Under the pieces are notes generated by a model. It had not been told where the DNA came from, ran no database searches, and worked only from the letters and a program-made list of their open reading frames with translations. A program made the translations under genes and the position numbers. Below are positions 9,114 to 9,132 of a DNA stretch of 11,732 nucleotides, piece after piece. The stretch lies in IMG/VR virus record IMGVR_UViG_2548876857_000009; one strand, written 5' to 3'. Source of the stretch: a virus (lineage: Duplodnaviria > Heunggongvirae > Uroviricota > Caudoviricetes). How positions within the stretch are numbered: position 1 is the first letter of the stretch; each line of letters opens with the position of its first letter.

Positions 9114-9132
9114 GGCGAGGCGGGGAAAGCAC
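9114..9132. other. cos site: 19-nt P2/P4 cohesive-end sequence
   Basis: Exact GGCGAGGCGGGGAAAGCAC, which I recall as the P2/P4 cohesive end. It sits between psu and the cargo hotspot, as at the P4 genome ends. Confidence 0.7.

Follow-up and report, generated by a model that had tools for sequence, protein, structure and literature searches.

A P4-like satellite at ssrA retains the P2/P4 cohesive-end site directly beside its cargo genes

The 19-nt sequence GGCGAGGCGGGGAAAGCAC at positions 9114–9132 of the window (the whole stretch of DNA analysed, 11,732 nucleotides) most probably functions as the cohesive end of a P4-like satellite that would be packaged with a P2-type helper. An exact P2/P4 cohesive end had been claimed here in an earlier note, with a comparison to the cos sequences of both phages as the proposed check; the alignment revealed no mismatch within the 19 nt. 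The sequence equals bases 1–19 of P4 (NC_001609; 19/19) and both annotated ends of P2 (NC_001895; cosL, 1–19, and cosR, 33575–33593; 19/19), and it occupies a single site in the whole window even when up to 3 mismatches are tolerated; at that tolerance chance predicts 0.01 matches, and one turned up in 3 of 200 shuffles. The annotated cos of phage 186 (NC_001317) shares 17 of the 19 bases and is likewise followed by TGCGCGC, but carries T instead of A at position 5 and T instead of C at position 19. The cos site of the window is therefore of the P2/P4 type and not of the 186 type.

The cohesive end lies within a longer conserved sequence, delimited by an alignment of the window to the joined genome ends of P4 and P2, that corresponds to the 55-bp cos core named in PMC2231350 and PMC5694545, both citing Ziermann and Calendar (1990). 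This core consists of 29 nt to the left of the cut (TGCATTAAAACCGCCCTGCAAAGCGGGCG), the 19-nt end itself and 7 nt to its right (TGCGCGC). With respect to P4, 53 of the 55 bases are equal, and the two differences are found at 9101 and 9133, where the window has T and P4 has C; the T at 9133 is the base of P2 and of 186. The P2 core shares this T and differs from the window at the loop positions 9102–9104. Outside the 55 bp P2 shows no similarity to the window; the P2 core is flanked by old and Q, that of the window by satellite genes. Six sequences were compared (the window, three other E. coli P4-like elements with different cargo, P4 and P2), and among them only positions 9101–9104, 9133 and 9139 of the core vary, while from 9140 onwards all six are unrelated. 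The difference at 9101 was considered as a possible lesion of cos, and no damage is apparent; it seems harmless because the 9101–9104 loop varies naturally and because the exact 64-nt block around cos is present in 226 E. coli records. By every available sequence criterion, the cos site is intact.

Related cos blocks were found in 2136 of the 5426 complete E. coli genomes (39%). A scan for the 48-nt core pattern in one genome per species returned three matches, in E. albertii, in E. ruysiae and in a metagenome-assembled genome (MAG) labelled 'Bacillota', which shows only that at this sampling the exact core is restricted to Escherichia. The third match, a 7,015-bp contig of the 'Bacillota bacterium' MAG (JAEYGZ010000011.1), has the exact Escherichia-type 48-nt core; mis-binning or contamination by P4/P2-like DNA probably accounts for it.

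A closer look at the left half of the core showed an inverted repeat next to the cut site (Table 1), whose loop is the variable patch 9101–9104. This dyad presumably has a role in terminase recognition. Read along the minus strand, the dyad precedes TTTTAATGCA and resembles an intrinsic terminator by score; P4 and P2 have kept it as well, and it could stop transcription leaving the cargo towards psu. The stability of the cos DNA hairpin showed no excess over shuffled sequence (z = -0.24), and therefore no structural claim is made for it.

Table 1. Features of the window, in order of position (strand left empty where none is assigned).
Feature	Position	Strand	Basis
Left attachment site attL	1619..1713		ssrA-3'-end-like core TGGTGG GCTGGCGG AGTTTGAA and two arm-type CGTATACC repeats
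crr (cis replication region, two 120-bp repeats)	1781..2080		99.3% to P4 4291-4590
alpha, 777 aa (primase-helicase, origin-binding)	2135..4468	-	99.1% over 776 aa, no gaps
cnr (ORF106, copy-number control)	4483..4803	-	100% to P4 ORF106
orf151	4939..5394	-	98.7% to P4 ORF151
epsilon, 95 aa (helper prophage derepression)	5387..5674	-	97.9% to P4 Epsilon
CI immunity RNA (Rfam C4 family)	5919..6006	-	Rfam C4 74.4 bits, full model
isrK and a1b1 target elements	6105-6195		Rfam isrK 72.3 bits, c4-a1b1 49.1 bits
vis / AlpA-family excisionase-regulator, 88 aa	6254..6520	-	97.7% to P4 ORF88; Pfam Phage_AlpA E = 7e-21
ori region, between vis and sid (type-1 iterons 6799-6902, late promoter region)	6576..7071		iterons
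sid, 244 aa (external scaffold, redirects helper capsid to small size)	7072..7806	+	99.2% to P4 Sid, full length
delta, 166 aa (helper late-gene transactivator)	7803..8303	+	98.2% to P4 Delta, full length
psu, 190 aa (capsid decoration / polarity suppression)	8377..8949	+	99.5% to P4 Psu, full length
cos core common to P2-family phages and P4, 55 bp	9085..9139	+	three-way alignment with P4 and P2 junctions
Inverted repeat CCGCCC-N8-GGGCGG	9095..9114		abuts left cut site; stem kept in P4 and P2
Cohesive end, 19 nt (staggered terminase cut site)	9114..9132	+	GGCGAGGCGGGGAAAGCAC; exact match to P4 and P2
Cargo of the cos-adjacent hotspot	9140..10520		two ORFs; replaces P4 gop-beta-cII; no P4 homology from 9140
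Cargo ORF, 294-aa predicted helical membrane protein	9385-10269	+	
Cargo ORF, 57 aa	10320-10493	-	
Tyrosine integrase, 403 aa, complete	10521..11732	-	Pfam arm-binding, central and catalytic domains; NCBIfam PRK09692 605 bits

The cos site closes a backbone that is that of P4 almost throughout. Homology starts exactly at 1781, the first base of crr, and ends at 9139, 7 bp past the cohesive end; over this length the window aligns to P4 4291–11624 plus 1–26 with 97.4% identity, and the order crr-alpha-cnr-orf151-epsilon-CI RNA-vis-ori-sid-delta-psu-cos is the same in both. A tblastn search with the P4 proteins recovered eight of them at full length (97.7–100% amino-acid identity), their genes being free of frameshifts and truncations. 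In P4-like satellites the core set comprises int, alpha, epsilon, alpA/vis, sid, delta and psu (de Sousa & Rocha 2022, PMC8628076), and here all seven are full length and in conserved order, six at 97.7–99.5% identity to P4 and the integrase at 35% to P4 Int. The earlier description of sid-delta-psu and alpha as intact thus holds (full length, 98.2–99.5% amino-acid identity to P4), and so does that of ori and crr: crr contains 10 of 10 octamer sites in the P4 arrangement, and at ori five of the six type-1 octamers GGTGAACA are exact at the P4 positions and the sixth has one mismatch, with alpha-binding octamers present in both regions.

Two parts of the backbone depart more clearly from P4. 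The ori region is 91.7% identical to P4 9031–9582, and its three tandem type-2 decamers (about 6663–6705 in the window, 9176–9205 in P4) are wholly different in the window, P4 and E. coli E47, although their flanks are about 98% identical in the three; this patch consists of hypervariable iterons. The immunity region (5667–6302; P4 8168–8584) is the most divergent part, with 89.4% identity and 11 indel columns, and the immunity specificity may differ from that of P4.

The start codon of the integrase is the last triplet of the window; attR therefore falls outside, and the right end is known from relatives. In E. coli FORC 064, whose copy of the element is 99% identical, and in loci L003 and L006, the same 403-aa integrase gene is separated by 184 nt from the ssrA (tmRNA) 3' end. 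Strains that differ in host, country and left flank carry copies of at least 98% identity at ssrA, which is consistent with horizontal spread. To read the left attachment site, the window was aligned with the attL and attR sequences from three E. coli genomes. Positions 1619–1640 reproduce the 3' end of ssrA imperfectly, with several indels relative to it. Only 8 bp within them (GCTGGCGG, 1625–1632) match ssrA exactly, and these are all that attL and attR have in common as an exact core. On the element side, the 24-mer GCTGGCGGAGTTTGAATAAATATT is identical in five genomes in which the left flanks and the cargo differ, and it thus marks the element boundary. Tandem CGTATACC repeats follow at 1694–1701 and 1706–1713, with four matching copies next to int in FORC 064; they resemble the arm-type repeats annotated in P4 attP. 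From att core to att core the element measures 10,291 bp in FORC 064; the corresponding length deduced for the copy in the window is about 10,299 bp.

To the left, positions 1–1620 lie outside the element and correspond to a decayed neighbouring island. An IS3/IS911 end (1–242) is followed by an integrase split into a catalytic part (225–872) and an N-terminal part (963–1451), and the island carries its own ssrA-terminator-like hairpin at about 1540–1575. The locus is a tandem array of ssrA-targeting islands. The satellite is seen in the inner or the outer position of such an array in other genomes (L007, L016), which points to repeated integration events.

This arrangement bears on whether the element can still move. 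An intact cos could belong to an element that is domesticated or stranded, either because the hybrid attL in the tandem array blocks it or because a compatible helper is missing, the site having been kept through recent ancestry only. The several indels that separate attL from the ssrA 3' end, the 8 exact bases shared with attR, and a left neighbour reduced to a split integrase and an IS fragment all speak in this direction, and since the exact core is so short and the element adjoins a decayed island the efficiency of excision is uncertain. Immobility is nevertheless improbable in view of genes with neither frameshift nor truncation at 97.7–100% amino-acid identity to P4, an element-side attL 24-mer unchanged across five genomes of differing left flank and cargo, arm-type repeats at both element ends, copies at least 98% identical in unrelated strains, and the occupation of both inner and outer array positions. 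That the 19-mer is a chance match, or the relic of a P2-like prophage end, has only the shortness of the motif in its favour and is so improbable as to be negligible, being ruled out by the alignment to P4: just 0.01 matches are expected by chance, the adjoining 7.3 kb are P4 at 97.4% identity, psu ends 165 nt upstream of cos with exactly the spacing of P4, and the window contains no P2 structural genes.

A satellite packaged with a P2-type helper thus remains the preferred reading. The earlier note had judged that the element looks competent for packaging of the P2 type, and the parts of this judgement that can be read from the DNA (the cos core, the full-length genes and a unit of about 10.3 kb) were confirmed, so that helper-dependent packaging is well supported by sequence. 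Full-length genes are present for the replication, helper derepression, transactivation, capsid-size and excision functions of P4. In the P4 system, the P2-type terminase makes 5' overhangs of 19 nt and acts on monomeric circles, the 1.2-kb deletion derivative P4 vir1 del22 is viable, and cos plasmids of 5–10 kb are packaged into P4 capsids (PMC2231350). The unit of about 10.3 kb is close in length to P4 vir1 del22 and compatible with a small capsid of P4 size.

For the element described here, terminase cleavage, excision and packaging are inferred from published P4 biology (PMC9122126, PMC2231350). In the proposed mechanism, when a P2-type helper is present, Epsilon would derepress it and Delta would turn on its late genes. 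Excision from the 3' end of ssrA by Int and Vis would yield a circle of about 10.3 kb, which Alpha would replicate from ori and crr, and Sid would make the helper capsid protein assemble into small capsids. On monomeric circles the 55-bp core would then be recognised by the helper terminase, which would introduce nicks staggered by 19 nt. The linear genome produced in this way would start at 9114, run through the cargo, int, the rejoined att site and the segment from crr to psu, and have 9113 as its last base. Since the cargo sits directly to the right of cos, it would travel with the satellite; mobilisation of cargo together with a P4-like element is established (PMC9122126). The weakest step is excision from a tandem array with such a short exact att core. 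The mismatched type-1 octamer and altered type-2 repeats of ori, and the 89% identity of the immunity region, also count against the proposed mechanism.

The two cargo ORFs gave no match to Pfam, PADLOC, NCBIfam or PHROG profiles, including none to a recognised defence family. The AlphaFold model of the 294-aa protein is confident (pLDDT 89) and consists entirely of helices, of which hydrophobic ones lie close to each terminus; compared with PDB folds it had no match at E < 0.1. The cargo DNA is present in 14 of the 5426 E. coli genomes, in all of them with at least 99% identity. The pair (WP_157902061 and WP_089551099) is listed as a 'hypothetical + hypothetical' P4 hotspot locus in Table S1 of Rousset et al. 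2022 (PMC9122126), and it is absent from the tested systems of Table S2 of the same work. About 127 homologues of the 294-aa protein were found in Gammaproteobacteria and beyond, and the distant ones (30–47% identity) belong to Aeromonas, Vibrio, Acinetobacter and other genera. Some of the latter are accessory genes of unrelated prophages: one belongs to a Mu-like prophage of Aeromonas, with Mor and a TIR protein as neighbours, and another to an Acinetobacter prophage. The 294-aa protein and the 57-aa ORF are a candidate defence or exclusion gene. The more specific proposal, that the cargo acts in superinfection exclusion or abortive infection as a new system of one protein, disseminated through P2-dependent packaging of the satellite, is a tentative one that we regard as possible but somewhat doubtful.

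The same cargo and integrase were also observed in E. coli DETEC-P793 (L009, 8976–9808), on a P4-like backbone with an annotated delta of 81 aa and psu of 187 aa. As this backbone differs, the cargo and int module occurs on different backbones. A scan of IMG/VR for the junction between cos and cargo returned a single match, in a prophage region of an isolate genome near ssrA, and no virion contig.

Taken as a whole, the island has the appearance of a mobilisable P4-type satellite and not of a dead remnant, and its cargo should therefore be considered open to horizontal transfer by P2-type helpers. In this it agrees with what is generally held for P4-like elements and introduces no new principle. 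The practical value is one of annotation, with the limits of the element, its cos and ssrA attachment sites and the cargo gene family now identified.

In comparison with P4 (NC_001609 / X51522), the element combines an identical cohesive end, the 53/55 cos core and the backbone of 97.4% DNA identity with a unit length of about 10.3 kb as against 11,624 bp. It diverges from P4 in the type-2 repeats of ori and over part of the immunity region, and P4 bases 27–4290 (gop, beta, cII, int and attP) are absent, their place being taken by the cargo pair and a different integrase. The attachment core of P4 is annotated at 4078–4097, whereas the relatives of the present element integrate at ssrA. In the prophage the replaced segment is divided between the two ends, and it forms one continuous piece only in the circle or the virion DNA. 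The replacement would fit an exchange of everything from cos to att as one module, in line with what PMC9122126 speculates about cos-adjacent recombination, and the element can be read as a P4 backbone with a swapped module of cargo, int and att. A conserved cos core directly beside hypervariable cargo, between psu and int, is a hallmark of E. coli P4-like elements (PMC9122126, PMC8628076, PMC13586616). In the satellites of Rousset et al. 2022 (PMC9122126) the conserved sequence stops a few bases past cos and is followed by cargo and int, exactly as here. The layout and the cargo locus are already known, and near-identical copies exist in RefSeq; apart from a cargo that lacks a recognised defence domain, the element shows no essential difference from the published E. 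coli P4-like satellites.
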